From a plasmid, in the sequence record CP060656.1: a stretch of DNA of 31,807 nt. One strand, 5' to 3'. The notes beneath the pieces were generated by a model, which saw only the letters and a list, made by a program, of their open reading frames with translations, did not search any database and was not told the origin of the DNA. Positions 2,996 through 31,507 of the stretch are shown piece after piece. The translations under genes were made by a program, and so were the position numbers. Every line of letters begins with the position of its first letter. Position 1 is the first letter of the stretch.

Positions 2996-3012
2996 AATAA
3001 AGGAGAGTTTTT

Positions 3013-3813: not shown

Positions 3814-3814
3814 A

Positions 3815-4108: not shown

Positions 4109-4124
4109 CAAAAGAGAGGTGAGT

Positions 4125-4262
4125 ATGGGAACAGAAACAAGAGAAAAAGAAATAGAAACATGGTCAGATTTTATTGATGAGTTTCTTAAAGAAGGTGGTG
4201 TTATTTATGAAAATCAAAACAGACAAAAAAGAGAGGTAGTATATGAAGAATGGAATTAGGAA
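4125..4262 (+). CDS. possible small ORF (45 aa) below track cutoff
   Basis: ATG preceded by strong AGAGGTGA RBS; overlaps start of 4243 ORF by 20 nt in another frame. Confidence 0.3.
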
Positions 4263-5538: not shown

Positions 5539-5553
5539 AAAGGAAGGTTATTT

Positions 5554-6099: not shown

Positions 6100-6110
6100 A
6101 GAGGTGTATT

Positions 6111-6308
6111 ATGAGAAATAAAGTTTTAGAAGCATGGTTTTATATAGTTGTAGCAATGACATTTACAGGATACTCATTTTATCTGTTTTTCGAGACAACA
6201 GACATATCAAGATATGGTGTGATAGGTGTTATTTTTAATCTGGTTTCATTAAAGCTGTTATATGAGGCTTACAAAATAAACAAAGAAATAAAAAGAAAAG
6301 GTTTTTAA
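6111..6308 (+). CDS. small 2-TM membrane protein (65 aa), last gene of pilin operon
   Basis: AAAGAGGTG RBS; two hydrophobic helices; followed by bidirectional terminator 6326-6353. Confidence 0.5.
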   Translation: MRNKVLEAWFYIVVAMTFTGYSFYLFFETTDISRYGVIGVIFNLVSLKLLYEAYKINKEIKRKGF

Positions 6309-6325: not shown

Positions 6326-6353
6326 AAAAGCCCCTTAACAGGGGCTTGGTTTT
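6326..6353. terminator. bidirectional terminator AAGCCCC-TTAACA-GGGGCTT between pilin operon and hns
   Basis: Hairpin with T-runs on both strands. Confidence 0.7.
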
Positions 6354-6374: not shown

Positions 6375-6809
6375 TTAGTCTTTTTTGATCAGGAAATCGT
6401 CTTTTTTTGCCCCGCCTTTAATGGCTTCTTCAATAGGTTTTGGTGGACGACCACGACCAGACCATAAGACCTCTTCACCATCTGCGTTTGTATAAGCATA
6501 CTTAGGCTCTACAGAACCACGTTTAACGCCCTTAGCGCCCTTACCCGGAGCAGGAAGCTCTTGGCCTAACAGGAACGCTCTTACGCTGTCTAAGCTCACT
6601 TCAAAGCCTTCAGACTGGAGTAGTTCAGTAGTAGCTTTAAGCTTGTCTTCAACCAGTAGCTGTTTCTGCTTCTCTTCTTCAATGCGCTTGTTGATCTCTT
6701 CTTTTACAGCTTCAACCTTTTCAGCGAACACTAAGAACTCTTCATCACCAATTTCATTAGCGATTTTACGCAGAGAACGGATGTTTGATAAGTGAGAAAG
6801 ATCGCTCAT
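6375..6809 (-). CDS. hns: H-NS family nucleoid-associated DNA-binding protein (144 aa)
   Basis: N-terminal LSNIRSLRK and C-terminal PKYAYTNADGEEVLWSGRGRPPKPIEEAIKGGAKKDDFLIKK match the enterobacterial H-NS motif (W.G.GR.P...DDFLIK); start ATG 6809 with AAGGGG RBS (track start 6869 is upstream, in frame). Confidence 0.88.
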   Translation of the reverse strand: MSDLSHLSNIRSLRKIANEIGDEEFLVFAEKVEAVKEEINKRIEEEKQKQLLVEDKLKATTELLQSEGFEVSLDSVRAFLLGQELPAPGKGAKGVKRGSVEPKYAYTNADGEEVLWSGRGRPPKPIEEAIKGGAKKDDFLIKKD

Positions 6810-11613: not shown

Positions 11614-11862
11614 ATGATGACATTACTTAGCACTTTCAACTACATCCCAGCTTTTATTGTTGGTTTAGTAATGATTTTTTTATCTGTTAAAGTAGTTCTT
11701 TTACCAATGGCTGATTTAATCACTAAAATCAGAGACAAAACAACTGATGTTGCTATTTACCCTCTTAGTGTTTTTATGGGTGTTCCGGCTATCGCAGTCT
11801 TTTTTGTAGCTGTATCTTTTACAGTAAGCATGTTTGCTTACATGGTTGGATTAGTTCACTAA
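11614..11862 (+). CDS. small hydrophobic protein (82 aa, 2 TM)
   Basis: GAGAGGA RBS; followed by tandem terminators. Confidence 0.5.
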   Translation: MMTLLSTFNYIPAFIVGLVMIFLSVKVVLLPMADLITKIRDKTTDVAIYPLSVFMGVPAIAVFFVAVSFTVSMFAYMVGLVH

Positions 11863-13067: not shown

Positions 13068-13137
13068 TGAAATGTAGTATATACTAATATATATTAATAT
13101 ATATTGATGGTTAGTCAATCGGCTAACTACATTTAAG
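13068..13137. repeat. iteron cluster 1: three 10-bp direct repeats (TAGTATATAC TAATATATAT TAATATATAT) bracketed by AATGTAGT inverted repeat
   Basis: Read directly; lies in divergent promoter region between Rep-candidate and parA. Confidence 0.7.
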
Positions 13138-13169: not shown

Positions 13170-13823
13170 ATGCTTGCTATCTCGATTTACAATAAAAAAG
13201 GTGGTGTTGGGAAAAGTCTCTTCAGCATCGTTATCTCCTCTTGGTTTGGACACAACGGCAAAAAGACAACTCTGTTAGACCTCGATCCACAGGGCGGGAG
13301 TTTGCTCTTTGCGAGCATCGCAGAACAGGCCGGAACAAAACTAACGTTTAACGTAGCTCGTAAGCCAACCTCTAAAGATGTTGATGTGTTCGTATTTGAC
13401 CACAGCCCCGGCATTCATAGCGGTGGTGATGGTCAGCTTGCCCCGTTCGTAATCATTCCAACTATCCTTGATGCCAGCTCATACAGTGCTACGCTCAAGA
13501 GCGTTCAGGAACTACGTGAACAGGGTAAGACAGACAATGATTTTATCGTTGTTCCTAATCGTGTTGAGATCCAGAACAAAGAACAGCTCGACCTGTTAAT
13601 CAAGCTACAGGAAGAACACAGGGCAGCAGGCCATGACTACGATTTGCCATACATCAAAAAGCGTGTTGCCTATCCTCGTTCATACAACAACGGCGTCACC
13701 ATCTTTGAAGACAAGACAGGCTTACCGCTGGTATCTGATGCCCGTAAAGAGTTTGAGTTGTTGATGGAAGCTGTAGGCCAGAAAATCAAAGCCGGTGTTG
13801 AGGCTCGACGCAATAAAAGTTAA
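13170..13823 (+). CDS. parA: ParA/Soj-family partition ATPase (217 aa)
   Basis: Deviant Walker A KGGVGKS at N-terminus, LDLDPQG motif; GC-rich; flanked by 10-bp iterons. Confidence 0.9.
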   Translation: MLAISIYNKKGGVGKSLFSIVISSWFGHNGKKTTLLDLDPQGGSLLFASIAEQAGTKLTFNVARKPTSKDVDVFVFDHSPGIHSGGDGQLAPFVIIPTILDASSYSATLKSVQELREQGKTDNDFIVVPNRVEIQNKEQLDLLIKLQEEHRAAGHDYDLPYIKKRVAYPRSYNNGVTIFEDKTGLPLVSDARKEFELLMEAVGQKIKAGVEARRNKS

Positions 13824-13853
13824 TATATATTAATATATACTAATATATATCGT
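13824..13853. repeat. iteron cluster 2: three 10-bp direct repeats (TAATATATAT TAATATATAC TAATATATAT) immediately downstream of parA
   Basis: Read directly; same unit as cluster 1. Confidence 0.7.
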
Positions 13854-19471: not shown

Positions 19472-19969
19472 ATGCTTGATTTAGATATTAAAAGAGAGTT
19501 GCTGTTTGCTGAAACAGCCGAAGAAGTAGATATATTGGTAAAGGCCGGAGCTGATGTAAACGGTCTTATGGGTAGTGTTTTTCCTTTAGCTTTAGCTGAA
19601 AACTTAGAAGTAGCAAAGGCATTAGTTGCTAATGGTGCTGATGTTAACTTTACCAATAAGAAAGGTGAAACAGCTATCTTCTATAACAAAAACATCGCTG
19701 TTATCAAATTTTTGATTTCACAAGGCGCAAATATTAACCATTTAAACAACGATGGTGAAACAGCATTGTTTAAAACATCCGACATTGAAATGATTAAAGC
19801 GCTTATCAAGTTGGGTTGTAGTCCATTCCTCAAAAACAAGAATGGAGATCGCCACGACACAAAAATAAAACCAGCAGATAAAGAAGAATACCAAAGCTTT
19901 ATGAATAAGCTTAAAGAAATGATCAGGAACGCACTTGAACAAAAAAAGCAGATGCTACAAGTAGCGTAA
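19472..19969 (+). CDS. ankyrin-repeat protein (165 aa)
   Basis: LVxxGADVN...GETAIF and LISQGANINHLNNDGETALF ankyrin repeats; AGAGGTGG RBS. Confidence 0.8.
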   Translation: MLDLDIKRELLFAETAEEVDILVKAGADVNGLMGSVFPLALAENLEVAKALVANGADVNFTNKKGETAIFYNKNIAVIKFLISQGANINHLNNDGETALFKTSDIEMIKALIKLGCSPFLKNKNGDRHDTKIKPADKEEYQSFMNKLKEMIRNALEQKKQMLQVA

Positions 19970-19995
19970 AAAAATAACCGGACTACCTCTTTAGT

Positions 19996-20027
19996 TTAAC
20001 CCGCTTCTGGCGGGTTTTTTCTTTTCT
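19996..20027 (+). terminator. intrinsic terminator CCCGC-TTCTG-GCGGG-TTTTTTCTTTTC
   Basis: Hairpin plus T-run. Confidence 0.7.
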
Positions 20028-20096
20028 GGCATTGACATATTTTGTTTTTATTTTAATTTATAATTATCACCCAATTGAAAAGAAAAAGGAAAAATC

Positions 20097-20489
20097 ATGA
20101 AAGCATTAACAGACATATTAAAAACCAAAAATACAATTGAAATTGAAAAATTCATTAATGAAAACCGCGTTATTGAAGAAGATTTTTATATTGATGAAGT
20201 AGCCAATATTTTCCATGTTGTTCTACTTACAAAACAATATAAGAGCTATGAAGTAGCAAGAATGCTTACCAAATACTTTGACATTAACAAGCAGGATAAA
20301 GCTGGTAAAACAGTTCTGTTCTATGCCGTTCTCATGGGGAATACTGAAGCTGTTAAGTTCTTTATCTCCGCAGGAGGCGATGTATCAATAAAAGACAATC
20401 AAGGCAGAAAAGCGGCAGACCAGATAACACTACTTGATCTTCAAAATGCTTCTTCAATGTCAAGAGTATTACTATCAGCAGAGAAATAA
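20097..20489 (+). CDS. ankyrin-repeat protein (130 aa)
   Basis: DKAGKTVLFYAVLMGNTEAVKFFISAGGDVSIKDNQGRKA ankyrin consensus. Confidence 0.75.
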   Translation: MKALTDILKTKNTIEIEKFINENRVIEEDFYIDEVANIFHVVLLTKQYKSYEVARMLTKYFDINKQDKAGKTVLFYAVLMGNTEAVKFFISAGGDVSIKDNQGRKAADQITLLDLQNASSMSRVLLSAEK

Positions 20490-20490
20490 C

Positions 20491-20928
20491 ATGGATGAGT
20501 TTTCTTTAGATACGTTAAAATCATATATAGACAGAAATCAAACTTCACTATTCTATGATTACCTCACTAAGCACCAATTAGACACTAATATGAATATTTT
20601 ATCTTGGTGTCTTTTGTCTGTTTTTTCAAAGTCAGAAAATGAAAACCACCAATACTATAATTTGTTCTGTTTAGTAGTGGGATTGTTCAAAGATGTTAAT
20701 ACCCCAATCAATGGAAGACTACCATTAGAAATAGCTTACTCAATTAATAACATTAAGTTTTATATCCATCTTCTTTTGAATGGAGCAGATCCCCAAAAGA
20801 AAAATAGCAAATACAAATCCACGTATGAAATAATAATCAAAGATGAGAATGAAAAGTTTCTTTCCTATATAATGCGGTATGAGCAAAGTCTGATTAATGA
20901 AATACAGAAAAGAAAAGGCACTCATTGA
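20491..20928 (+). CDS. ankyrin-like protein (about 145 aa), coupled to upstream ankyrin gene
   Basis: ATG 1 nt after upstream stop; LLLNGADPQ and LPLEIAYSINN ankyrin-like segments; terminator overlaps stop. Confidence 0.5.
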   Translation: MDEFSLDTLKSYIDRNQTSLFYDYLTKHQLDTNMNILSWCLLSVFSKSENENHQYYNLFCLVVGLFKDVNTPINGRLPLEIAYSINNIKFYIHLLLNGADPQKKNSKYKSTYEIIIKDENEKFLSYIMRYEQSLINEIQKRKGTH

Positions 20929-20942
20929 GAGTGCCTTTTTCT
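20910..20942 (+). terminator. terminator AAAGGCACTC-ATTGA-GAGTGCCTTTTTC overlapping the stop codon of 20491-20928
   Basis: 10-bp stem plus T-run. Confidence 0.65.
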
Positions 20943-21261
20943 AAAAGTGATACTTATATGATGTCAAAACTTACAATAAATAGAAATTGGGTATTAATAT
21001 TTACGTATTAATTAAGTAATCAATTACCTTCCTTCCGTCAATAGCAGTTGAAAAATATTTTCCATTTTCTTGAAAAAAGTGTTGATCGTCATAAGCGTTC
21101 TGTAGATAATTACCAAATCAAAGCAGTCATATGCTTTACGCATCATGTAGGTTCAGGCTTTAAGCCTCCATCTTTCGATAGATGATGATGCACCAACCGC
21201 CGGAATGGTTCCGGCCTGTTCCATGAACTCATGGAGCTGATCTATCTATAGAGGTTGGTTT

Positions 21262-22170
21262 ATGACTGTATCTATCCAAAACACCCCATCTTCAAGCCTA
21301 AAGCCCCTTTACCGTTGGGCTGGCGGCAAATCTAAGCTACTCAAAAGCTACAATCCACATCTACCAGATTTGAACAGCGTAAGCGCATACGTAGAGCCGT
21401 TCTTTGGAGCTGGCGCTCTCTTTGCGTCTGTTAAGTCTACATACAACCAGATCCCTACAATCATCAACGACATTAACCCTGAGCTGGTAAGTCTACTCAA
21501 TACCATCAAACACGATTTTAAAGCGTTCTGTATCGAGCTGCAGGAGCTGGAAGCGGCTTACCTATCTATACGCTCTCAGGAGGTCAGGAACTACCGTTTC
21601 TATCAGCGTAGAGAACAGTATTGGAAAGAACAGATTGGTAGTGTCCGGGCATCGGCCTTACTCCTGTTTTTGATGAGCACCGGCTTTAACGGGATATGGC
21701 AGGTAAACAAGAAGACAGGCCGCTACGGAACAGGCGCAGGGTTGCTTAACCATAAGGGCAGTCTCTTTGATTACTCACTCCTGAACGAGTGGCACAGAGC
21801 TTTACAGGCAACGTCTATCCATTGCGGTTCTTATGCTGATCTCGATGTTCCAGCAGGGGCTTTTGTCTACTGTGATCCGCCTTACAGGGATAGCTACGCC
21901 GATTATGGCCATGCATTCACTGATGAAGACCACAAAGACCTTATCGAATGGTGTCGGCAGCTTCAGGAGCGGGGCTGTGTTGTGTGGTTAGCCAACAGAG
22001 AGGCAAATGATAGCTTCTTTGAAGAAAACGCTTCTGATGCTTCTGTATTGCGGTTTGACATTACCTACACAGCCGGAAGAAAAAAGAAAACGGAAAACGG
22101 ACATGAAGCAGTAAAAGCTAAGGATTTGCTGATGATTTGGAATAATAAAAACATGATTAAAGCCGCTTAA
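21262..22170 (+). CDS. dam: Dam-family N6-adenine DNA methyltransferase (302 aa), orphan
   Basis: RWAGGK, EPFFGAGALF (motif I), YCDPPY (motif IV), FNGIWQVN match E. coli Dam; GC-rich; no adjacent restriction endonuclease gene. Confidence 0.9.
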   Translation: MTVSIQNTPSSSLKPLYRWAGGKSKLLKSYNPHLPDLNSVSAYVEPFFGAGALFASVKSTYNQIPTIINDINPELVSLLNTIKHDFKAFCIELQELEAAYLSIRSQEVRNYRFYQRREQYWKEQIGSVRASALLLFLMSTGFNGIWQVNKKTGRYGTGAGLLNHKGSLFDYSLLNEWHRALQATSIHCGSYADLDVPAGAFVYCDPPYRDSYADYGHAFTDEDHKDLIEWCRQLQERGCVVWLANREANDSFFEENASDASVLRFDITYTAGRKKKTENGHEAVKAKDLLMIWNNKNMIKAA

Positions 22171-22179
22171 TAAAAAATA

Positions 22180-22232
22180 TTTGATTTATGCTTTTGTCAT
22201 AGTGTTAACTTTAATATATAAACTAAAAGAGG
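22180..22232 (+). promoter_or_regulatory. promoter family C copy 1 (TTTGATTTATGCTTTTGTCATAGTGTTAACTTTAA; TTGTCA-17-TATAAA)
   Basis: Duplicated at 27358-27410 with about 90% identity. Confidence 0.55.
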
Positions 22233-22240
22233 AAAATGAA

Positions 22241-22696
22241 ATGAGTTATATGTCATTAAATGTAGTAAGCATTCAGATTAAAAAAGCAAATGTTGAAAAA
22301 CTCACTGCGTGGGTCAGAGATTTTGAAAACATACGTGCATATGGAAGCGCATCAAATATAGATATTATAAAAAATGATGATAGAGAAGAAGATGCTCATT
22401 ACATAAAAACGAAAAGGTATAGAAAAGAATGGTTTGATATTTTCTTTGAATCCTCTGATGAACTTAATCATTTTTATCAAGACGGGTTTTTAGAAGGGAT
22501 CGCGAGAATGTTTGATTGCTATGTCAATATTAGCTCAATAACATCTTGGTGTTGTCCTTATCATGAGTCATATACTATGTATATGGATAACTGGTATGAA
22601 CCGTATTATAAAAACTTTACCGGAGATGAAAGTAGAAAATGGCCTCGCCATATAGGTATGTATTTTTGGAACTGGGTAAATCTTGATGAGATTTAA
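22241..22696 (+). CDS. hypothetical W/Y-rich protein (151 aa)
   Basis: Promoter family C copy upstream; AGAGGAAA RBS; track N-terminus MIYAFVIVLTL is translated promoter repeat. Confidence 0.5.
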   Translation: MSYMSLNVVSIQIKKANVEKLTAWVRDFENIRAYGSASNIDIIKNDDREEDAHYIKTKRYRKEWFDIFFESSDELNHFYQDGFLEGIARMFDCYVNISSITSWCCPYHESYTMYMDNWYEPYYKNFTGDESRKWPRHIGMYFWNWVNLDEI

Positions 22697-22783
22697 ATGA
22701 CGTGAATAAACAGGTCTTGAGTAAGAACTGGCACACCCAAAAAGCAGCGTAATTATTTTTTAATAAAAGAGAGGATACAAAAA

Positions 22784-23077
22784 ATGAGAAAGAAGTTTAG
22801 ACCTGTGGATTTTCATACAAGCAATATGGGAAATAACTATATAACTTTAGAATGTATGATGTCAGCACCATTTCATGAACATTCACCAGAGCTTTTCGCT
22901 AAATGTTTAGCAGAGGTCCCCAAAATAAACAGGCTACTTATTGATAGACGTAAGTGTGATAGCAAGGAACATTACGAAAAGGTTTTGATGGTTGCTGATA
23001 TGTGTTTATCAATGATGATGATTGAGCGCCGTCTTGGTATCGTTAATGAAGATAATAGTTATTTTAATCAAAAATGA
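22784..23077 (+). CDS. hypothetical protein (97 aa)
   Basis: AGAGAGGA RBS. Confidence 0.5.
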   Translation: MRKKFRPVDFHTSNMGNNYITLECMMSAPFHEHSPELFAKCLAEVPKINRLLIDRRKCDSKEHYEKVLMVADMCLSMMMIERRLGIVNEDNSYFNQK

Positions 23078-23087
23078 GAGGTGATAT

Positions 23088-23468
23088 ATGGAATACATGA
23101 ACGTAGTGAGAAGTGATTTCGAAGAGTTCGCAAAAGAGAACGTAGAAGGTTATGAACATAGTAAAACATTAATGATGCCTGAATATGTATCAAACACGGA
23201 TTATCCACAGATTAAACGTGTTCCATTCTTTTCATTTGAGGGTAATAAATTGCTATTTACCTATAATCAACTGGAAGATAACAGGATAAATAAAGCTGTA
23301 TTAAAATATGCTGTTAACCTTTGCTTTAATAGTGATATGAGTAATAAGTATAGAGATATAGAGGCTTTGAGTAATACGTATTCCGCTGTTTATTACTGTT
23401 TACTCGACAACATGTATAAGACATTAAAGAAAAAAGACATTGAGAGTGTTTTATATTGGCTTGATTAA
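23088..23468 (+). CDS. hypothetical protein (126 aa)
   Basis: GAGAGGTGA RBS, 10 nt after upstream stop; terminator 23470-23498. Confidence 0.5.
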   Translation: MEYMNVVRSDFEEFAKENVEGYEHSKTLMMPEYVSNTDYPQIKRVPFFSFEGNKLLFTYNQLEDNRINKAVLKYAVNLCFNSDMSNKYRDIEALSNTYSAVYYCLLDNMYKTLKKKDIESVLYWLD

Positions 23469-23469
23469 A

Positions 23470-23498
23470 TAAGGGGCTTACATAGCCCTGTATTTAAG
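23470..23498 (+). terminator. hairpin GGGCTTACATAGCCC family copy 1
   Basis: Same hairpin at 24040 and 24994. Confidence 0.5.
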
Positions 23499-23559
23499 AA
23501 AATGAAATGTATTTTCAAGGTGGTATCTATTAAACATAACATAAAAAAGGATAAGTAAT

Positions 23560-23991
23560 ATGAAAGACAACAAAGAACTAAAAATAGCAACTATAACAAC
23601 TAATATGTTAGCAAAATACATTTATGAAGGAATAATTAAACTTGATGATGAGAGTTTAGCAAAGTATGAAGATTTAGCTGAGTTTCAATCTCATAAAGTT
23701 GATATAGATGTTTATGATGTTTTAGAGGATATAGAAGCATATCTAAATGACGTTATAGATTTATTAGAAACAGATGTTTTTTGTGAAAATATCCTAACTA
23801 ACTTTAATGGAAAAAATCATGAATATGAAGCAATCCATTTTGATACAGAAGAAGAGTTAAAAGAATTTCTTTTAGAAGAAGATCTATTTATCATTAATAA
23901 CTCTTTAATCATTAACTCTGTTTCTGATGATTTAGATGCTTGCACACAAGTTTTAGAAATGCTTGAAGCTAATAAAATCCATAACGATTAA
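23560..23991 (+). CDS. strongly acidic small protein (143 aa, about 24% D+E)
   Basis: AAGGAT RBS; net charge roughly -25 from composition; DNA-mimic anti-restriction candidate is inference only. Confidence 0.5.
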   Translation: MKDNKELKIATITTNMLAKYIYEGIIKLDDESLAKYEDLAEFQSHKVDIDVYDVLEDIEAYLNDVIDLLETDVFCENILTNFNGKNHEYEAIHFDTEEELKEFLLEEDLFIINNSLIINSVSDDLDACTQVLEMLEANKIHND

Positions 23992-24038
23992 TCGTGAGTA
24001 TTTAGAGAGTGAAATGACTTGCTTGATTTTATTGATTA

Positions 24039-24062
24039 AAGGGCTTACATAGCCCTTTAATC
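24039..24062 (+). terminator. hairpin AAGGGCTTACATAGCCCTTT copy 2
   Basis: 7-bp stem, T-run. Confidence 0.55.
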
Positions 24063-24075
24063 CAGATAATAAAAT

Positions 24076-24150
24076 ATATTTAAAATAAAAGTATTTATTA
24101 ATTTGACTAATATTTTAAAAGAGGTATCTATTTAATATAACATAAAATAA
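24076..24150 (+). promoter_or_regulatory. promoter cassette A, diverged copy (TTGACT 24103-24108)
   Basis: TAAAATAAAAGTATTTATTAATTTGACTAATATTTTAAAA similarity. Confidence 0.55.
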
Positions 24151-24162
24151 AAGGAAAACATT

Positions 24163-24414
24163 ATGAATGAAAACAGTATAATTGAAGAACTCTTTGGGAT
24201 TGTAGAAAACAATAAAACACATAGCCATGATGATTTAATCAGTGTGATTGATGAAAAGATTAAAACCATAGCTGAAATAACCTTAGAAGCAAAATCCAAA
24301 GATAAAAAGATTGAGCAGCTTAAAGAGAGAATAGAGATCCTATCCTTCTTGTTAGCTAAACGTGATTTGAAAATCAGTGCTCTTGAAGATGAAATAGAAG
24401 AGTTAAAAATATAA
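24163..24414 (+). CDS. coiled-coil small protein (83 aa)
   Basis: Diverged promoter cassette A copy at 24076-24150; heptad-rich. Confidence 0.5.
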   Translation: MNENSIIEELFGIVENNKTHSHDDLISVIDEKIKTIAEITLEAKSKDKKIEQLKERIEILSFLLAKRDLKISALEDEIEELKI

Positions 24415-24427
24415 TAAAACAACCATT

Positions 24428-24450
24428 GGGGAGTAATCCCCTTTTTTATA
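24428..24450 (+). terminator. intrinsic terminator GGGGA-GTAA-TCCCC-TTTTTT
   Basis: Hairpin plus T-run. Confidence 0.7.
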
Positions 24451-24471
24451 AGCCAATATAAGGAAATCACT

Positions 24472-24720
24472 ATGAGTGAGAAAACAATAGAACGTCAAGT
24501 TATAGACCAGATCTTAGAACTTAAAACAAAAAACGAGAAAGAGTTAGTTGGTAGATTAAAAATTTTAGAAGATGAAAAGGAATGTATAATAATGAAGTAT
24601 GAACACATTATAAGTGAATTAAAAGATAAGCTTGAATGTGCTCGTAAAGAAAATGAATGGCTTTTGTCTGATATTTATCATATTCAAAGCATCATTAAAG
24701 AGGGTGAAAATGAAAAGTAA
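24472..24720 (+). CDS. coiled-coil small protein (82 aa)
   Basis: AAGGAAAT RBS. Confidence 0.5.
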   Translation: MSEKTIERQVIDQILELKTKNEKELVGRLKILEDEKECIIMKYEHIISELKDKLECARKENEWLLSDIYHIQSIIKEGENEK

Positions 24721-24991
24721 TGATAACTGGAATGGAACAACAAAAAAAGAAGATGAAATATCATTAGATGACTCGACTATCACAATATCTTTATCAAAAG
24801 AAGATGAAGAGGCAGAAAAGAAACAGTCTTTAAGGAAGAGATTTAATATCGAAAATCATTTAGAGAATGCGGCAATGTCAGGAGGTGTTATTGTAGTGAT
24901 CTTAGGCATGATTATCTACCTTCCGGTTATCCTTGTGATGATGACAGGGTTGATGATAAGAGAGTTGATAGACACGGTGAGAGAATGGTGA
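24710..24991 (+). CDS. small C-terminally TM-anchored protein (93 aa)
   Basis: GAGGGTGA RBS; start overlaps upstream stop by 11 nt; terminator 24993-25017. Confidence 0.45.
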   Translation: MKSNDNWNGTTKKEDEISLDDSTITISLSKEDEEAEKKQSLRKRFNIENHLENAAMSGGVIVVILGMIIYLPVILVMMTGLMIRELIDTVREW

Positions 24992-24992
24992 T

Positions 24993-25017
24993 GCAAGGGG
25001 CTTACAGCCCCTTTGTC
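24993..25017 (+). terminator. hairpin AAGGGGCTTACAGCCCCTTTG copy 3
   Basis: Stem plus short T-run. Confidence 0.55.
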
Positions 25018-25101
25018 TTGCCCGTTCTGTAGCTATATCCTGTAGAAAATCGCCTCAACACATGGTATGTTGGTTAAGTTAAGTCCTTATGTGTGTATCT
25101 C

Positions 25102-25476
25102 ATGCTCAAATACAAAAGCCTGAAAGATTTTCTTGATGAACAGAAACAGCAAGAGCTATATAAAAAAAGGCTTGCTGAAAAGCTCTATTACACTATTAAA
25201 AAGGGAACGGCAGAAGAGATATTATCAGTTTTCAAGCAGTGTTCTGAAAGTGGTTTAGATTTCAAACAGGTTAAACATGACTACTTACTTGAATACTTTG
25301 ATACGTTCAGATCTGGATATAACAAACCCTCGATACTTATCACCCGCCTGATTATCAGTTATCAAAAAATCATTTCTGTAAAAGCTATCCAGTCATTTTA
25401 TAACAACATCTATTACAGGCATCTTCTGGATGATGAAGAGCTAATAGAGTTAACTTCTCTTATCATTAAAGATTAA
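25102..25476 (+). CDS. hypothetical protein (124 aa)
   Basis: ORF without clear RBS or promoter; GC-richer leader. Confidence 0.35.
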   Translation: MLKYKSLKDFLDEQKQQELYKKRLAEKLYYTIKKGTAEEILSVFKQCSESGLDFKQVKHDYLLEYFDTFRSGYNKPSILITRLIISYQKIISVKAIQSFYNNIYYRHLLDDEELIELTSLIIKD

Positions 25477-25515
25477 ATCTGTAAGTAATCCGCTTATCTA
25501 AAACACCTTCCGATT

Positions 25516-25560
25516 ATTTGACAATTGGGTTAGTTTTGTTATTTATATTTATATATAACA
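25516..25560 (+). promoter_or_regulatory. promoter family B (TTATTTGACAATTGGGTTAG), related copy at 1620-1665
   Basis: 20-bp shared block upstream of two unrelated genes. Confidence 0.45.
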
Positions 25561-25576
25561 AACAAAGGAGATATTT

Positions 25577-25945
25577 ATGGATTACGCACAAAGCAAAGAG
25601 ATTTCATTACACATTATAAGTTCTATGAAGTTGAGTGTTCACTTTAACAAATTTGAAGTTGATAACGAAAAAGATATGGATGGTATTAAATACATAATCG
25701 AAAGAAACAAAGCAAACATAAAGATCAGCACAGCAAAAATTAAAGTTGTTGAGCCGGGAAGTTTATTATTCTTATCAAGTAAAATGAGGGATACACTAAA
25801 AGCCACTGACCTATTCATTATTTATACTGATGTTGATGAAAGTAATGATGAAGAGATAACAAAGAAACTAAGAGACTTTGCCTTTAGACATAAAGCATTT
25901 GTTGTTCAGATAACGAAAAGCAGAGGTAGTTATGATAATAGATAA
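25577..25945 (+). CDS. hypothetical protein (122 aa)
   Basis: Promoter family B (TTGACAATTGGGTTAG) upstream; AAGGAGAT RBS. Confidence 0.55.
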   Translation: MDYAQSKEISLHIISSMKLSVHFNKFEVDNEKDMDGIKYIIERNKANIKISTAKIKVVEPGSLLFLSSKMRDTLKATDLFIIYTDVDESNDEEITKKLRDFAFRHKAFVVQITKSRGSYDNR

Positions 25946-26240
25946 AATACAATATTGTGATTATGACTACACGTTAAAACAGATTAAACATGGAAATTAC
26001 TATCACTTTAGGATTTATAAAAAACAATCAAATCATAAAGTAGTAAGAGGAACGGAACCAAAATATTTAGTAAAAAGTGAAGTTGATCTTTTAACAGACA
26101 AAAGAGTATATGCCGGAAAAGATAAAGCGAAAATAGAACAGTTTGCAGAATCAATGAAGGATGAGTTAACAAACATAGTTTTTGACGTGATGAGTAAAAC
26201 CAATAGCGTTGATGCAAAAATAAGCATAACAGGAGAATAA
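25932..26240 (+). CDS. hypothetical protein (102 aa), overlaps upstream by 14 nt
   Basis: GCAGAGGTAG RBS. Confidence 0.5.
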   Translation: MIIDKIQYCDYDYTLKQIKHGNYYHFRIYKKQSNHKVVRGTEPKYLVKSEVDLLTDKRVYAGKDKAKIEQFAESMKDELTNIVFDVMSKTNSVDAKISITGE

Positions 26241-26241
26241 T

Positions 26242-26544
26242 ATGATATTTTTAACATTAGTTATTATAGTGAATTTATTGATATTCGTTAACATGGGTAG
26301 TTTTGTTAGTTGGGTTTCAGAACACAAGGTTTATGGGATATGGTATAAAAGAATATTCAAGATCGGTTTTCTTTTCTTATTCGCTATGTTTATTGCCAGT
26401 ATCTTGGGTGGTGAAGCAGTTCAGACAGCAGCTAAATCATTCTTCTTTTATATTGATTGCGTCATCGGGTTTGTCTTAATGACTATAGTTCACGCCTTTT
26501 TCGTCAAACTAAAATCCAAAAAGGACACGTCCAAACCCGCCTAA
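26242..26544 (+). CDS. small 3-TM membrane protein (100 aa)
   Basis: GGAGAA RBS; ATG 2 nt after upstream stop; terminator 26544-26568. Confidence 0.5.
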   Translation: MIFLTLVIIVNLLIFVNMGSFVSWVSEHKVYGIWYKRIFKIGFLFLFAMFIASILGGEAVQTAAKSFFFYIDCVIGFVLMTIVHAFFVKLKSKKDTSKPA

Positions 26545-26568
26545 AGCCCCGCAAGGGGTTTTAAAAGC
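26544..26568 (+). terminator. intrinsic terminator AGCCCC-GCAA-GGGGTTTT
   Basis: GNRA-like loop hairpin plus T-run. Confidence 0.65.
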
Positions 26569-26733
26569 ATTCATCTATTCACTTCTTTACATTGAATGTT
26601 AAAACCTATCAAAACCACCAATCAATTGACAAAACCAATTAATAACTTGATTTTAATTGTCGGTTACGTCATTTTTAACTTGTTTTGAAATTTCTTGTTA
26701 CAAACACTAATCAGAACAGGTAAGGAACACATT

Positions 26734-27033
26734 ATGAAGAAGCAGATTTTAGCAGCAGCGGCTCTTGTGGCATCGCTGGCGCTCTCCGGTTGTGGTGATG
26801 ATGGTATCTATGGAACGTATGAAAACGCCCAGTACGGCGCTGTTCTCGACGTTCAAAAGGATGTGATCAAGTTCAGGGGTGAAAGCTTTCCGGTGAAGTC
26901 ATGGGATGAAAGTCAAAAACCAACCTACATAGCTAAAACTCAACATAGCGTTGTTGGTTCATGGACGTTCAAGCTTGAGAAGACAAAAGACGGCGGCGTG
27001 ATTTATCAAGGCACAAAGTTTAAAAAGGATTAA
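26734..27033 (+). CDS. lipoprotein (99 aa; signal peptide with LSGC lipobox)
   Basis: MKKQILAAAALVASLALSGC; AAGGAA RBS; GC-rich relative to neighbours. Confidence 0.65.
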   Translation: MKKQILAAAALVASLALSGCGDDGIYGTYENAQYGAVLDVQKDVIKFRGESFPVKSWDESQKPTYIAKTQHSVVGSWTFKLEKTKDGGVIYQGTKFKKD

Positions 27034-27038
27034 TCAAA

Positions 27039-27311
27039 ATGGAAAATAAAACTGTTCGCTGTCCTTTCTGTGATCACGAGACTAAGCATGGTTTAGGTGT
27101 GTGTTTACCTTGCGGGGCAAACATAACATACGGTAAAGCGCCATTATGGTTTGGTCAAATTGGAGCTTTATTATCTGTTGTATTAAGCTTTGGTGTCTTG
27201 ATTTTTTCAGAGAATATGTTTATTGGTTTAGCTTCTCTTTTTGTGTTTTTGATATTAACTTTTGTTCTATCTAAAACTATCTATGCGGATAGAGTTGTAT
27301 TCACAAGATAA
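27039..27311 (+). CDS. zinc-ribbon (CPFC...CLPC) 2-TM membrane protein (90 aa)
   Basis: Four Cys in CxxC...CxxC arrangement followed by two hydrophobic helices; terminator 27318-27348. Confidence 0.55.
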   Translation: MENKTVRCPFCDHETKHGLGVCLPCGANITYGKAPLWFGQIGALLSVVLSFGVLIFSENMFIGLASLFVFLILTFVLSKTIYADRVVFTR

Positions 27312-27317
27312 CACCTA

Positions 27318-27348
27318 TCTTTAAGCCCCTTCGGGGGCTTTCTGTTTT
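27318..27348 (+). terminator. intrinsic terminator AAGCCCC-TTCG-GGGGCTT-TCTGTTTT
   Basis: UUCG tetraloop hairpin plus T-run. Confidence 0.75.
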
Positions 27349-27357
27349 ATAAATAAA

Positions 27358-27410
27358 TTTGATTTATGCTTTTGTCATAGTGTTAACTTTAGAAATAAAT
27401 AAACTAAAGG
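27358..27410 (+). promoter_or_regulatory. promoter family C copy 2
   Basis: See copy 1. Confidence 0.55.
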
Positions 27411-27418
27411 AAAATATT

Positions 27419-28099
27419 ATGAATAACATACAGCATTTATCAAAACTCATCACTGAAATAAAAAATCCTTCAACAGCATTAAACGCAGCAAGCATTTTAA
27501 AAGCAATAGAACTCTTTACAGGGTTTTGTCTTTATCTGGTTTGTGATGCGCTACATGCCAAACAAAAAACCTTCCAGATCACTTCCGGTATCTTCGACGG
27601 CAATATCATAGCTAACATGCCAAAAAACGAGATAGAGAAGTATAGCAAGGCGGCAGATGCGGCTTACCAATACGTTCATATCATCAAGCAGAAAGAGGCG
27701 TTTACAGACGTTCTATCAGAGCTGTATGAAGAGATCTATCTTACAGGTAAGTGCGGTGATGGATTAGGCCAGTTCCTGACGCCTGACGATGTGAGCAGTC
27801 TAATAACATCTATTGGTATGCGTTCAAGAGCTGATACAGCGAAAATCAATGAAGAATGCTGTGGTGCTGGCTCTATAGTGCTATCGACACTGAAAGAACT
27901 ACATCAGAAAAATGGAAGCTATCTTAATACAACACTAAATCTGAATGACATAGATCCTCTTATGGTAAAAATGGCAATCATTCAAGTCATGGCTCCAATT
28001 GCTTTTAAAGAAAATGTAGATATTAAAGAGATAAATATTTTTAATCACAATACTTTGTTAAATAAAAATAAGCAGGTTTTTAAATACACTTCGGGTTAA
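27419..28099 (+). CDS. HsdM/N6-adenine MTase-like N-terminal module lacking catalytic NPPF motif (226 aa), truncated MTase or decoy
   Basis: GQFLTP (motif X, cf. GEFYTP), EECCGAGS (motif I, cf. DPACGSGG), LNLNDIDPLMVKMAIIQV (cf. YGQESNPTTWRLAKMNL); ORF ends before motif IV; promoter family C upstream and cassette A immediately downstream. Confidence 0.5.
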   Translation: MNNIQHLSKLITEIKNPSTALNAASILKAIELFTGFCLYLVCDALHAKQKTFQITSGIFDGNIIANMPKNEIEKYSKAADAAYQYVHIIKQKEAFTDVLSELYEEIYLTGKCGDGLGQFLTPDDVSSLITSIGMRSRADTAKINEECCGAGSIVLSTLKELHQKNGSYLNTTLNLNDIDPLMVKMAIIQVMAPIAFKENVDIKEINIFNHNTLLNKNKQVFKYTSG

Positions 28100-28116
28100 C
28101 TACTCCATTCATCCTT

Positions 28117-28190
28117 TATTTTAAAATAAAAGTATATATTTATTTGACTATTATTTTAAATATAGTATTTATTATATATAACATAAAACA
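28117..28190 (+). promoter_or_regulatory. promoter cassette A copy (TTGACT 28144-28149)
   Basis: Identical core to 29320-29385 copy. Confidence 0.7.
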
Positions 28191-28203
28191 TAGGAGAATA
28201 GTT

Positions 28204-28629
28204 ATGAATATAAAATACATTCCAATAAGTTGTGGAAAAAATGAACCGTTAACATTTAATGAAAGTGGTTTTCTTGAGGTGGATGAACTTGATAACATTG
28301 AAGTTCAAAAAAATTCTTTTAGTGATATTGAAAAACTTATAACGTTAATAGAAGTAAAGGCATTAATGTTAAGTATTGTTTATCAGGATATAAACGCTCA
28401 AGATCTGGATATAACATTATCAACAGAAAGAGGCTATGTATGTGCTGAGTTTTGCGGTGGTGTCTATGAGATTAGCATAAGAACAGACATAGGAGCAGGA
28501 CGCTACGAAGCTTCTGTAGGTAATGAGCTGGTTATGTTTAACAGATTGGATGATGCGGTTGAAAGCTTCTTTGACTGTATAGAAGAAGCTGTAAAAGAGG
28601 TAATAAGAAGAGAGGGGGGAGATAACTAA
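28204..28629 (+). CDS. hypothetical protein (141 aa)
   Basis: Promoter cassette A copy 28117-28190; AGGAGAA RBS. Confidence 0.55.
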   Translation: MNIKYIPISCGKNEPLTFNESGFLEVDELDNIEVQKNSFSDIEKLITLIEVKALMLSIVYQDINAQDLDITLSTERGYVCAEFCGGVYEISIRTDIGAGRYEASVGNELVMFNRLDDAVESFFDCIEEAVKEVIRREGGDN

Positions 28630-29237
28630 TGAGCAAACTAATAGAAACAACAACAGCACAAAAGATTTTCAAATCCATGATTGATTTAAATCTTGATAAA
28701 GATGAAGTCATTTACTTTGAAGAGTTCATAAACTTGCTATATGAGGCGGGGTTATTAAACCCCGATTTTCAGGAGCATCAGGAATTCATAGAAAACAACA
28801 GAAACTATTTTATTGAGTTAAAGAGGATTAGAACAGAGGGAAATAAGACTTTCGTAATAAGAAACTATCTAAATGATATGTTCGCAGAGCTAAGAAGGTT
28901 AAACAAGGATTTAGGCTATACCTATAAAGAGAAGGTAGAAGAGCTTATCAAGGAGTTTGAAAGCTTCTCAGAGACAGCAAAGCCTCTTGGTGATGGTAAA
29001 AGCCTTGTTTATCTTGTAATGCTTGGAACTCAGTCAAAGGGAAAATCACACAAAAAGATTGTGTGTGTGTTTATAAGAGATGATGAAAACAAAGAAATGT
29101 TCAATCAATCAATGAACTCTAAAATAATTCTCGCTGAAAAAGTTATTTTCTTTGAAGAAGTAAATACATTCAGAAGACCAAAATACTATCTAAGTGTTCT
29201 TGATAAAGCATTCAATATATTCAATGAAACCATGTAA
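28629..29237 (+). CDS. hypothetical protein (202 aa), start overlaps upstream stop (TAATG)
   Basis: GGGGGGAGA RBS within upstream gene end; terminator 29235-29260. Confidence 0.55.
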   Translation: MSKLIETTTAQKIFKSMIDLNLDKDEVIYFEEFINLLYEAGLLNPDFQEHQEFIENNRNYFIELKRIRTEGNKTFVIRNYLNDMFAELRRLNKDLGYTYKEKVEELIKEFESFSETAKPLGDGKSLVYLVMLGTQSKGKSHKKIVCVFIRDDENKEMFNQSMNSKIILAEKVIFFEEVNTFRRPKYYLSVLDKAFNIFNETM

Positions 29238-29260
29238 TCCCCGCAATGGGGATTTTTTAT
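29235..29260 (+). terminator. intrinsic terminator ATCCCC-GCAA-TGGGGAT-TTTTT
   Basis: Hairpin plus T-run. Confidence 0.75.
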
Positions 29261-29302
29261 TGAGTTAAATTAATAATCAAGGATATATACACCGGATTAA
29301 TT

Positions 29303-29385
29303 AAACCGTTTATCTGGTTGTTTAAAATAAAAGTATATATTTATTTGACTATTATTTTAAATATAGTATTAATTATATATAAACA
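29303..29385 (+). promoter_or_regulatory. promoter cassette A copy with upstream AAACCGTTTATCTGG motif (TTGACT 29345-29350)
   Basis: Sequence identity. Confidence 0.7.
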
Positions 29386-29403
29386 AACAAAAGGAGAAGT
29401 AAT

Positions 29404-29691
29404 ATGAAAAAAATTAAATACATAGAAATCACTGACGCAGCTATTTTAAAATTCATTTCATTAAATAGTTTAGACGCTTCGGTAAAAATAGAAGACGAAA
29501 TAAGAAATGTTGCGGATTGGATGTTAAGCAATGAAATGTTTAAAAAAACTGGAAATAAAAAGATCATTGGAAAAATAGTAGACGCCGCTTCTGATTATCA
29601 TAAAGGTTGCTATTTAATCTATAACTTTGAAAAGTATTATAATATCGAATGTTTTTACACTGTAGATTTTAACGATTATATAAACAGCTAA
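29404..29691 (+). CDS. hypothetical protein (95 aa)
   Basis: Promoter cassette A copy 29303-29385; AAGGAGAAG RBS. Confidence 0.55.
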   Translation: MKKIKYIEITDAAILKFISLNSLDASVKIEDEIRNVADWMLSNEMFKKTGNKKIIGKIVDAASDYHKGCYLIYNFEKYYNIECFYTVDFNDYINS

Positions 29692-29699
29692 TATCTAAC

Positions 29700-29722
29700 A
29701 CAGCCCCGCAAGGGGCTATGGT
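29700..29722 (+). terminator. hairpin AGCCCC-GCAA-GGGGCT without T-run, directly before RBS of 29737 gene (weak terminator or attenuator)
   Basis: Read directly. Confidence 0.35.
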
Positions 29723-29736
29723 AAGGAGAATATAAC

Positions 29737-30123
29737 ATGATTAACTTTTTAATAGGTTTTTTGATAGAAATAAAGGTATTGGTTTTAAAGATAAAGATTG
29801 ATAAAGCCTCACATGTATTAAGTAGGGCTATGCTTTCAAAAGGGTATAGCAAAGACTTTAATGACAAATGTAAAACAGTAAGAAAAAAGCTTTTGGCTTT
29901 CTATGATAAAGATTTAAAACAACCATCCAACTATAGAAACGCTGAATATATGTTAGATGAAGCAATGGTTTTGTGTAATAAGTTTAACTACCTTGTTGAA
30001 AAATCACTTATTACAGAACATAAAAGAAATAGTAAAAGCTCAGGATCGTCAACCTCAGACTCATTTTTTGGAAGTGGTGGAGATTGTGATGGTGGCGGCG
30101 ATTGCGGCGGTGGAGGAGATTAA
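29737..30123 (+). CDS. hypothetical protein (128 aa) with Gly/Asp/Cys-rich C-terminal tail (GSGGDCDGGGDCGGGGD)
   Basis: AAGGAGAA RBS; low-complexity GC-rich 3' end. Confidence 0.5.
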   Translation: MINFLIGFLIEIKVLVLKIKIDKASHVLSRAMLSKGYSKDFNDKCKTVRKKLLAFYDKDLKQPSNYRNAEYMLDEAMVLCNKFNYLVEKSLITEHKRNSKSSGSSTSDSFFGSGGDCDGGGDCGGGGD

Positions 30124-30125
30124 TA

Positions 30126-30341
30126 ATGAATAAAACAGAAAAACCAATCAATATTATAACTTCTTCAATTTTTAATGTGGCGTTCAGTTTAGGGATAACA
30201 TCATTATTTGAGATAACAAACAATATTCCAACAATGATAGCAATGGGGATTTTAACAGAGATTATGACTTTAATAGCATACAAAGAGGAAATAAAAACAC
30301 TAATAAAAAATAGAAACCTAAACCGCTTATCTGATAGTTAA
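30126..30341 (+). CDS. small membrane protein (71 aa)
   Basis: GGAGGAG RBS; ATG 3 nt after upstream stop. Confidence 0.45.
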   Translation: MNKTEKPINIITSSIFNVAFSLGITSLFEITNNIPTMIAMGILTEIMTLIAYKEEIKTLIKNRNLNRLSDS

Positions 30342-30400
30342 AATAAAAGTATATATTTATTTGACTATTATTTTAATATGGTGTAATTAATATATATAAC
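30320..30400 (+). promoter_or_regulatory. promoter cassette A copy with upstream AACCGCTTATCTGATAG motif (TTGACT 30361-30366)
   Basis: Sequence identity. Confidence 0.7.
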
Positions 30401-30421
30401 ATAAAACAAAAGGAGAATATT

Positions 30422-30748
30422 ATGTCAAAATTAAATAGTGAAGATTTTAACGCAATGAAAGAAGCTGGTTTTATTAATGAATGGAAAAAACCCGGAAGTG
30501 ATGAAGTTAGATATTACATCAACACTAAAGAGATAATCAATCTATGGTCAGAAGATAAGATTGAATTAGGTTATTCAAGAAGAGAAAGGTCTGAGTTAGA
30601 AGCACATAAATGGTGGTATGTTGAGTCTAAAAATGGTGGTTTTGTTTTAAAAACATCTATGAGTTATAACAACACTAAGCATAAATATATATTCCCATCA
30701 CTTTCAAAAGTATTGATAGAAGCGTCTAAAAGCGATCTTTCTGACTGA
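30422..30748 (+). CDS. hypothetical protein (108 aa)
   Basis: Promoter cassette A copy 30320-30400; AAGGAGAAT RBS. Confidence 0.55.
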   Translation: MSKLNSEDFNAMKEAGFINEWKKPGSDEVRYYINTKEIINLWSEDKIELGYSRRERSELEAHKWWYVESKNGGFVLKTSMSYNNTKHKYIFPSLSKVLIEASKSDLSD

Positions 30749-30800
30749 ATGTTATAGGATGGTATTGAAAGGTTAATAAACATAAAAAAAGGAAAGTATT

Positions 30801-31076
30801 ATGAATAGAACAAACTTTAATGTAATAATGAAAGATATAGTAGCGGAGCGTTTTGATGATGAAAGTGAAGCTTTGACATTTCTTGTCTCTGAAATGAGAG
30901 CTAATGGATATTATATTAACCCAAATGATTATTATCTATGTTGTGTTAGAGGTGGTTTAAATATTACTAAACTAGATCGCATTCAAAACTACGGTAAAAG
31001 GTTTAAAGCACATCAGATAAAAGAAGAGTTAAAATCAGTTTATGAACACATTAAAGAAAAATGTAAAGAATACTGA
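30801..31076 (+). CDS. hypothetical protein (91 aa)
   Basis: AAAGGAAAG RBS; bidirectional terminator 31080-31108. Confidence 0.55.
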   Translation: MNRTNFNVIMKDIVAERFDDESEALTFLVSEMRANGYYINPNDYYLCCVRGGLNITKLDRIQNYGKRFKAHQIKEELKSVYEHIKEKCKEY

Positions 31077-31079
31077 ATA

Positions 31080-31108
31080 AAAAGCCCCATAACAGGGGCT
31101 TTCTTTTA
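31080..31108. terminator. bidirectional terminator AAAGCCCC-ATAACA-GGGGCTTT between cargo array and vapC
   Basis: Hairpin plus T-runs on both strands. Confidence 0.7.
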
Positions 31109-31507
31109 TCGGTTAGGTATGATGGTAATGTAGTCGCTGACAAACTCAATCAGCTTGCTATCGCTGGTAATTAAAGGAAGCTTGTTATGCTTCGCTTGAG
31201 CCACGATAAGACGGTCAAACGGGTCTTTGTGTAGCTTCTCCGGCAAATCGGCTACAACAAGCGTATGCTCACTTTTAACAGGTATCTCAATCAAGCCAGC
31301 TTCAAACAGACCATCTCTAAACAACGTTGGATTATCAACGTCAAAGGGCTTGTTAAGACTACTTTTAATTACGACTTCCCAAACGCTGGCAGCAGAGAAG
31401 AACAGGCGGTTTTCGGTGTCTTCCAACAGCTCTACAACCTCTTGCTTTAAGCGATCAGGACGAAAACCCATGAATATTAAGATATTGGTATCTAAGAGGT
31501 AATCCAT
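31106..31507 (-). CDS. vapC: PIN-domain toxin VapC (133 aa)
   Basis: N-terminal LLDTNIL, conserved acidic residues, PFDRLIVAQA; start overlaps antitoxin stop (TAATG). Confidence 0.85.
   Translation of the reverse strand: MDYLLDTNILIFMGFRPDRLKQEVVELLEDTENRLFFSAASVWEVVIKSSLNKPFDVDNPTLFRDGLFEAGLIEIPVKSEHTLVVADLPEKLHKDPFDRLIVAQAKHNKLPLITSDSKLIEFVSDYITIIPNR

Follow-up and report, generated by a model that had tools for sequence, protein, structure and literature searches.

The plasmid DNA analysed here (31,807 nucleotides of record CP060656.1, hereafter the window) contains a sharply bounded family of six paralogous putative expression modules, each ~95-115 bp long and made up of a promoter and a ribosome-binding leader. 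With a probability of roughly 60%, we read each module as a putative promoter for the host RNA polymerase, that combines an UP-like block with a translation leader, serves accessory gene cassettes and doubles as a recombination junction. Comparison with related plasmids shows the six copies to be old paralogues whose positions are the same in all members of the family. In the proposed mechanism, the host sigma-70 RNA polymerase would be recruited mainly via the -35 element and the UP-like block, with the A-tracts in the presumed role of an UP element, and would transcribe, in the rightward direction, one to seven accessory genes, with an intrinsic terminator at the end of most units. The output would probably be modulated by H-NS, both host- and plasmid-encoded, and/or by a factor acting on a box further upstream. 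Being identical stretches, the copies also serve as recombination junctions, at which cargo is exchanged, acquired or lost.

The replicon and its six module copies

The 31.8-kb window has a GC content of ~34% and is 97-98% identical, over its full length, to small plasmids of Klebsiella, Raoultella, Citrobacter and Enterobacter. It is a nearly whole phylogroup E enterobacterial linear plasmid of the family described by Hawkey et al. 2022 (PMC9453081), assigned to that phylogroup by its vapBC toxin-antitoxin pair, size and GC content. Its relative pINF118_3 (L001) was deposited as a linear molecule; the ~680-bp terminal inverted repeats of pINF118_3 are absent from the window, past which that plasmid reaches by ~680 bp at either end (its perfect terminal inverted repeat measures 679 bp). 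Enterobacterial linear plasmids (pBSSB1, Klebsiella phylogroups A-E) occur widely in clinical Klebsiella, Salmonella, Enterobacter and Citrobacter, have no known replication genes, carry ~80% orphan genes and come from a donor lineage that is not known (PMC9453081). Recognisable genes of the window encode ParA, an LPD7 protein, a DUF927 primase/helicase-like protein, a DotA/TraY-like protein, two type IV pilins, an H-NS homologue, Dam and N6 methyltransferases, ankyrin-repeat proteins and VapC/Phd, and the remaining genes are orphans (~80% of the window proteins). The Pfam scan took in 51 of the 53 predicted proteins, the two left out being the products of 30126-30341 and 31106-31507, the latter a homologue of annotated VapC toxin. 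No relaxase or oriT was recognised on the window plasmid, and PLSDB typing lists these plasmids as non-mobilizable. The word 'promoter' is absent from Hawkey et al. 2022 (PMC9453081) and from the pBSSB1 paper, and we found no description of the module in the searchable literature.

Repeat finding, alignment and profile search each recovered the same six strong copies, all of them intergenic modules, five on the + strand and one inverted. The nhmmer scores on the window were 58-72 bits (E 1e-17 to 1e-21), the next best site reaching 12.6 bits, and all six lie at the places given in an earlier note on this DNA, whose observation is confirmed. The 16-mer TTGACTAWYATTTTAA, allowing for up to two mismatches, matched nine times in the window compared with 0.59 matches expected from shuffles. 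Copy a (1259-1353, - strand; 71.6 bits, also recovered by alignment; TTGACT at 1305-1300) is the inverted one, reported earlier at 1263-1346, and it does face the minus-strand gene 932-1243; its unit ends at a called terminator on the same strand (908-924). Copy b (2905-3002, +; 70.5 bits; TTGACT at 2955) faces the operon 3013-6308, which comprises seven genes, two of them type IV pilin genes, and ends at a bidirectional terminator (6328-6347, +). Copy c (24042-24148, +; 58.3 bits), facing gene 24163-24414 with a terminator at 24428-24441 (+), is the most diverged, as had been said of the copy at 24076, and has a terminator hairpin in place of the upstream box. Copy d (28093-28190, +; 63.1 bits) faces genes 28204-28629 and 28629-29237, and the terminator of its unit lies at 29236-29254 (+). 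Copy e (29294-29391, +; 65.9 bits; core 29322-29362, TTGACT at 29345), the site on which the earlier note was written, is followed by genes e1 (29404-29691), e2 (29737-30123) and e3 (30126-30341). Copy f (30315-30408, +; 67.1 bits) faces genes 30422-30748 and 30801-31076, and its unit is closed by a terminator at 31081-31102 (+). A degenerate seventh copy (851-893, -; TGTTATTAAT), with a TTGATT -35 element and a profile score of 5.2 bits, precedes gene 637-825(-).

The description of each copy as driving one small gene that ends in a terminator holds in part: orphan genes stand behind all copies and a terminator was called after five of the six units, but copy b fronts an operon and no terminator was called between unit e and copy f. 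The 3' end and stop codon of e3 overlap the upstream box and the first core bases of copy f, and in plasmids without cassette f the C-terminus of e3 differs. Between e1 and e2 lies a GC-rich hairpin without a T-run (AGCCCCGCAAGGGGCT, 29702-29717), which may serve RNA stability or processing and not termination. In the window, the cargo consists of orphan proteins, none of them paralogous to another. None was placed in a Pfam, PHROGs or NCBIfam family at E <= 0.001; at E <= 0.01 three marginal matches appeared, to a Pfam Mnd1 HTH stretch below the gathering cut-off and to two PHROGs, one of unknown function (E 0.002) and one 'tail protein' (E 0.009), and a search of the cargo against PDB sequences gave nothing below E 0.08.

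Anatomy and direction of the putative promoter

The copies were anchored on TTGACT, with its first T taken as -35. Compared in pairs, the six copies have a mean identity that is 30% at -135..-96 and 39% at -95..-59, rises to 94% (range 90-100%) in the core at -58..-18, and falls to 69% at -17..+8 (the -10 region), 46% in the leader and 35% in coding sequence, while random 41-nt pairs from the window are 28% identical. Outside this sharply bounded core, identity in the flanks drops to the background level of 28-30%. The 'near-perfect identity' ascribed to the copies applies to this 41-bp core but not to the longer stretch, since over 58-98 nt they are 62-93% identical to the reference copy. The core comprises A-tracts (-58 to -38), TTGACT and a piece of the spacer; apart from that piece, it coincides with the part of sigma-70 promoters that the alpha-CTD and sigma region 4 touch. 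The same block (tttAAAAtAAAAGTATaTATTtATTTGACTa..aTTTtaA) is at least 90% conserved in 85 pooled copies, 64 of them unique, from seven plasmids and gut-metagenome contigs. The -35 element TTGACT, a 5/6 match to TTGACA, is present in all six copies and is at least 90% conserved across the 64 unique ones. A-tracts at -56..-53 and -51..-48 are invariant in the pooled block and agree only partly with the published UP consensus. Inside the core, a 9-10 bp inverted repeat, TTTAAAATAA-N21-TTATTTTAAA, brackets the -35 element. An A-rich leader (~25 nt) follows 3' of each -10 element, then a strong Shine-Dalgarno sequence (AAGGAG or a near variant) and ATG, both on the gene-facing strand in all copies, with the ATG 58-62 nt from the start of the -35 element. 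In the tandem class b copies (b1/b2) of pINF118_3, the duplicated unit extends from about -85 to the start codon (~115 nt).

The -10 element is non-canonical. A TAnnnT hexamer 15-19 nt after TTGACT is absent from 32 of 33 unique copies; the best candidates, at N16, are TATTAA, TATTTA and TATCTA, with A instead of T at the normally invariant -7 position, and the element conserved at this place is a 7-mer, TATTAAT, TATCTAT or TATTTAT. A sigma-70 promoter scan called the forward module promoter in none of the six copies. With a -10 element that lacks TAnnnT and a forward site left uncalled by the scan, the 'strong promoter' of the earlier note is unsupported, and strength is unproven because TATTAAT itself departs from the canonical form. 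The form TATYWAT (TA-N4-T), ~16 nt after a good -35 element, was observed at the predicted promoters 825(-), 1627, 8476, 10913 and 25516 as well as in the six modules; its recurrence at the family B promoters, at 825(-) and at 10913 points to a plasmid-wide habit. The two further promoter families that had been noted, B (1624, 8476, 25516) and C (22173, 27351), are real repeats.

On the reverse strand, the sigma-70 scan called a promoter with a canonical TAnnnT, TTAAAA-N17-TATACT (9/12), in all six cores. It is conceivable, though improbable, that this is the working promoter or that the module is bidirectional, in which case short divergent or antisense RNAs would arise from the upstream box and this semi-conserved box would be transcribed sequence. 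The sigma-70 rule speaks for that reading in six of six copies and for the forward site in none, but 9/12 matches occur at chance frequency in this AT-rich DNA, where promoter-like matches numbered 63 against 64 expected and 68 against 66. Moreover, no conserved ORF, terminator or structure lies downstream on the opposite strand, the folds are not significant and an Rfam search of the modules gave 0 matches. The forward strand is the favoured reading of the putative promoter, because orientation and distance to the Shine-Dalgarno sequence and ATG are fixed in all copies and nothing is conserved downstream on the other strand. Reading the reverse strand as a FliA (sigma-28) promoter (TATACTTT-N11-TCCGATAA) was rejected, since the decisive C is the variable centre of a TATCnGATA palindrome and varies freely.

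The upstream box and candidate regulators

Copies a, b, e and f have in common an upstream box, TAAaCCGyTTATCt, located ~38 nt upstream of the -35 element (centred near -69) and weak in copy d. The CCGyTyATC part of this box lies at 29306-29314 (+) in copy e, with counterparts at 1335-1343(-), 2917-2925 and 30323-30331. Exact CCGCTYATC occurs four times in the window (composition-based expectation ~0.16), three times in modules and once at 25490, in the same orientation and each time upstream of a promoter. The site at 25490-25498 (CCGCTTATC) is part of a family B promoter (25482-25552, +; TTGACAATTGGGTTAG...) that is otherwise unrelated to the modules. There the box is 28 nt from the -35 element (promoter at 25516), one helical turn closer than in the modules, and it forms a conserved island in the divergent plasmids L002 and L003, in which the 19 nt between box and -35 are scrambled. 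A short motif common to otherwise different promoters, here four CCGCTYATC sites including that of the promoter at 25516, is a trait of regulon operators. The box looks like a protein-binding site, and its conservation suggests a regulator.

In the search for a cognate regulator, Pfam identified the H-NS homologue (6375-6809, -; PF00816 and PF22470) as the only DNA-binding protein among the 51 of 53 proteins scanned. Being the sole recognisable DNA-binding regulator on the plasmid, it is a candidate modulator of the AT-rich promoters. The product of the gene always found behind module a (protein a) was rejected as an autoregulator: its AlphaFold model (helix, five-strand sheet, helix; pLDDT 70) had no match among PDB folds at E <= 0.001, and no DNA-binding fold was seen.

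The upstream box and the 41-bp block might also be conserved mainly as the site of a plasmid-encoded transcription factor, be it an activator, a repressor or a factor that appropriates sigma, so that the modules would form a plasmid-autonomous regulon and not a set of constitutive strong promoters. This is an unlikely alternative, for which several features nevertheless speak. The 41 contiguous invariant bp exceed what a -35 hexamer and an UP element usually need, the inverted repeat TTTAAAATAA-N21-TTATTTTAAA surrounds the -35 element, and the CCGyTTATC box is shared with a different promoter at an offset of one helical turn and conserved there like a footprint; a weak, non-canonical -10 element also fits activator dependence. 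On the other hand, besides H-NS no regulator, sigma factor or RNA polymerase was detected by Pfam (51 of 53 proteins), the protein a model lacks a significant PDB match, and an AT-only inverted repeat of this size has, by our estimate, a chance probability of ~0.1. As a more specific and rather doubtful proposal, the core, the phased CCGyTTATC box and the TATYWAT -10 element could be the joint signal of a plasmid-encoded factor, an activator or one that appropriates sigma, hidden among the orphans; the cassettes would then be a self-contained regulon and the promoter a junction for cargo capture. If true, the accessory cassettes would constitute a regulon taken from host to host by a foreign AT-rich linear plasmid.

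We give little credence to the block being mainly a high-affinity nucleation site for H-NS-type xenogeneic silencing, which would keep costly accessory genes off. The setting is suitable, as a plasmid of ~34% GC resides in hosts of ~57% GC and encodes its own H-NS homologue (PMC9453081), and TpA steps and A-tracts abound in the core. However, H-NS binding needs neither 41 invariant bp nor a TTGACT at a set distance from the Shine-Dalgarno sequence and ATG. Furthermore, silencing is compatible with the explanation of the module as a promoter and hence is not a true alternative to it.

Cargo exchange, distribution and comparison with known systems

All six phylogroup E relatives compared carry 5-7 module copies at the same positions, and this number is also seen in ~31 kb gut-metagenome contigs and in four further assemblies. 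Searching the rest of the replicon and related genomes, as the earlier note had proposed, thus added the degenerate seventh copy and these 5-7 copies per relative. In plasmids of other phylogroups (L007, L008, L009), no module was detected at E < 1e-3. The exact 28-nt core pattern had no match in GTDB representative genomes or IMG/VR, and a looser 22-nt pattern gave 3 genome and 30 metagenome matches, with full modules only in contigs of the same plasmid family; 13 other 22-nt matches are chance core matches without a profile match. According to these searches, the module family is specific to phylogroup E linear plasmids. Homologues of protein a at 59-61% identity are encoded by plasmids whose DNA is still ~92% identical and whose modules do not differ, so no deeper relatives were gained from them.

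The copies group by position (classes a-f) and not by plasmid, and the rare single-base variants are copy-specific, which points to old paralogues whose core identity has been maintained and not freshly homogenised. In the most divergent relatives, orthologous cores are 94-100% identical versus a plasmid mean of 83-84%. This conservation is equalled by 7-13% of same-size windows for cores a, d and e and by 32% for core b in L002; a place in the top 7-32% of windows makes weak evidence alone, so that conservation among orthologues is suggestive and not significant by itself.

Across the window, the six relatives and the gut contigs, classes a and e are always followed by the same protein cluster, class b by at least six unrelated first genes, class c by two and class d by three. 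Breaks in the homology between plasmids lie three bases inside the ORF that follows module b (W3016), in the -10/leader region of module d (W28181), at the 5' edge of module f (W30308) and at a weak partial module (W23514). Other breakpoints are found at gene ends unrelated to modules; the modules are thus one class of junction and not the only one. Cassette f, a module with two genes, is absent from five relatives (L002-L006), and its junction displays only an 8-nt A-rich microhomology (AATAAAAA) and neither terminal inverted repeats nor target-site duplications. An extra unit of gene plus module b in pINF118_3 and L005 measures exactly one repeat period, a length characteristic of unequal homologous recombination from one copy to another. 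Indels between plasmids consist of a module together with its gene or genes and never of the module alone. The modular cassette architecture suspected earlier is therefore supported by the different cargo found behind the same positional promoter, by breakpoints at module edges and by the presence or absence of whole units. The idea of a portable promoter moved between cargo genes fares less well, as the copies stay by position and it is mostly the cargo that is exchanged behind a resident promoter.

Some genes next to the modules are mosaics. Compared with positions 10001-10312 of L043 and L045, module a and the first 20 codons of gene a (932-1243(-)) are identical and the rest of the protein is ~60% identical, on plasmids otherwise 92% identical to the window. 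In some plasmids a second 103-aa gene lies just downstream of gene a (in L001 its product is 24% identical to that of gene a), where the window has 324-825. In L003-L006, only the stretch corresponding to W28181-28348 is replaced, comprising the leader and about the first 48 codons of the gene that follows module d; within the ORF homology sets in again, and the protein has a chimeric N-terminus.

As a dispersed repeat with one inverted copy, the module might be taken for a MITE or IS remnant, for an Frpo/ssi single-strand promoter, or for a set of functionless duplication scars, and the right arm does resemble a leading-region anti-defence island with its orphan methyltransferases and same-strand orphan genes. 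We consider all of these highly improbable. The check for a longer IS or MITE with terminal inverted repeats found neither such repeats nor target-site duplications at the b1/b2 and cassette f junctions, and with no module-only insertion among the indels we exclude MITE/IS elements. Neutral scars are contradicted by the sharp conservation peak between decayed flanks. As single-stranded DNA the modules fold no better than shuffled sequence (z-scores +0.05 to -1.5), the only significant fold being that of copy c (z = -4.5), where the upstream terminator hairpin is part of the fold. By the definition of PMC11541004, an Frpo/ssi promoter was accordingly dismissed for want of a significant stem-loop rebuilding a duplex -35/-10. 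Integron cassettes were likewise rejected: there is no integrase or recombinase (Pfam, 51 of 53 proteins) and no attC-like fold, and the repeat, which takes in the putative promoter, is located 5' of the genes.

The preferred reading, a host-read putative promoter that also serves as a recombination junction, has partial counterparts elsewhere. The early promoter families of lytic phages (T4 early, T5 early such as PN25, and T7 A1-A3) are read by the host sigma-70 polymerase. Like them, the modules are present in many copies per replicon, are conserved past the hexamers into an A/T-rich upstream region, and precede small, mostly orphan genes, often with a terminator of their own. Unlike them, with their near-consensus -10 elements, the modules have a non-canonical, putative -10 element and reside on a stably maintained linear plasmid without phage genes. 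Megablast of the right arm against phage genomes yielded nothing, and the phage context proposed in the earlier note does not apply to a replicon that is a linear plasmid. Phage morons are autonomous promoter-gene-terminator units that some genomes have and their relatives lack. Of the module units, a, c, d and f have this make-up (putative promoter, one or two genes, terminator), from which units b (seven genes) and e (no called terminator) deviate, and presence or absence of the moron type is seen for cassette f, missing in L002-L006, and for the extra class b unit of L001 and L005. In contrast to morons, which have unrelated promoters and belong to prophages, the module units have one common promoter sequence and lie on a plasmid, where usually only the ORF is replaced behind the resident promoter.

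The yeast cytoplasmic linear plasmids pGKL1/2 encode their own RNA polymerase and use a 6-nt promoter motif, the UCS. They are comparable as AT-rich linear plasmids with terminal inverted repeats and a copy of a conserved motif upstream of each gene; the window plasmid differs in having no detectable polymerase, and its module motif holds a bacterial -35 hexamer. The KorA/KorB operators of RK2 are repeated operator motifs of a plasmid backbone regulon. As in the R388 network (PMC3937220), a motif repeated at many promoters of one plasmid implies coordinated control, and the upstream box common to otherwise different promoters adds to the likeness; for R388 and RK2, however, the cognate repressors are known and operators of ~12-20 bp are set in otherwise different promoters, whereas in the modules the whole putative promoter is repeated. 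Frpo/ssi promoters (PMC11541004) are also repeated before same-strand small genes, orphan methyltransferases and toxin-antitoxin genes and have -35, -10 and UP-like elements. They differ in the long stem-loop that rebuilds a duplex promoter, the modules folding no better than shuffled sequence, and they belong to the leading regions of conjugative plasmids, while no oriT or relaxase is recognised on the module plasmids.

The module reveals no new principle of gene expression. It is a defined cis-element common to the variable accessory genes of one phylogroup, and it could serve as an entry point to the expression of foreign AT-rich genes in a GC-rich host with H-NS and as a bait for finding the regulators of these plasmids. 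Recombination at common promoters accounts for part of their mosaic gene content.

Several further observations concern the architecture of these replicons. L007, which belongs to a different phylogroup by gene content and toxin-antitoxin system (not a formal assignment), contains, close to one end (41541-42575), over 20 tandem units of 35 bp and has four copies of its own, different intergenic module of 72-92 nt (3299-3370, 5564-5635, 11678-11749 and 40100-40191); repeated intergenic modules may thus be a general habit of these linear plasmids. Linear-plasmid records open with a perfect terminal palindrome of 60 nt in L007 (1-60; 44244-44303) and 10 nt in L001 (1-10), and that of L006 (1-33) with an imperfect one of ~32 nt, so that the sequence reads through an apex. 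Covalently closed hairpin telomeres would be consistent with such palindromes, as would artefacts of fold-back reads; protein-capped ends like those of pBSSB1 are what the literature assumes. AT-only palindromic repeats (TATATACTAATATATATTAATATATATT) on both sides of parA (13075-13106 and 13811-13849) are candidate centromere or ParA operator sites. The right arm (19472-31076) is a run of small orphan genes on one strand, with the orphan methyltransferases Dam (21262-22170) and N6-MTase (27419-28099), and relatives have a 3'-5' exonuclease as an insertion at W29228/29232; three ankyrin-repeat proteins are encoded on the plasmid, in the right arm and elsewhere. This arrangement is reminiscent of the anti-defence islands found in the leading regions of plasmids. 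The Dam methyltransferase region (21001-22000) has a GC content of 46% versus the plasmid mean of ~34% and is the sole segment held in common with plasmids of other phylogroups at 78-92% identity, which suggests a separate or recent acquisition.
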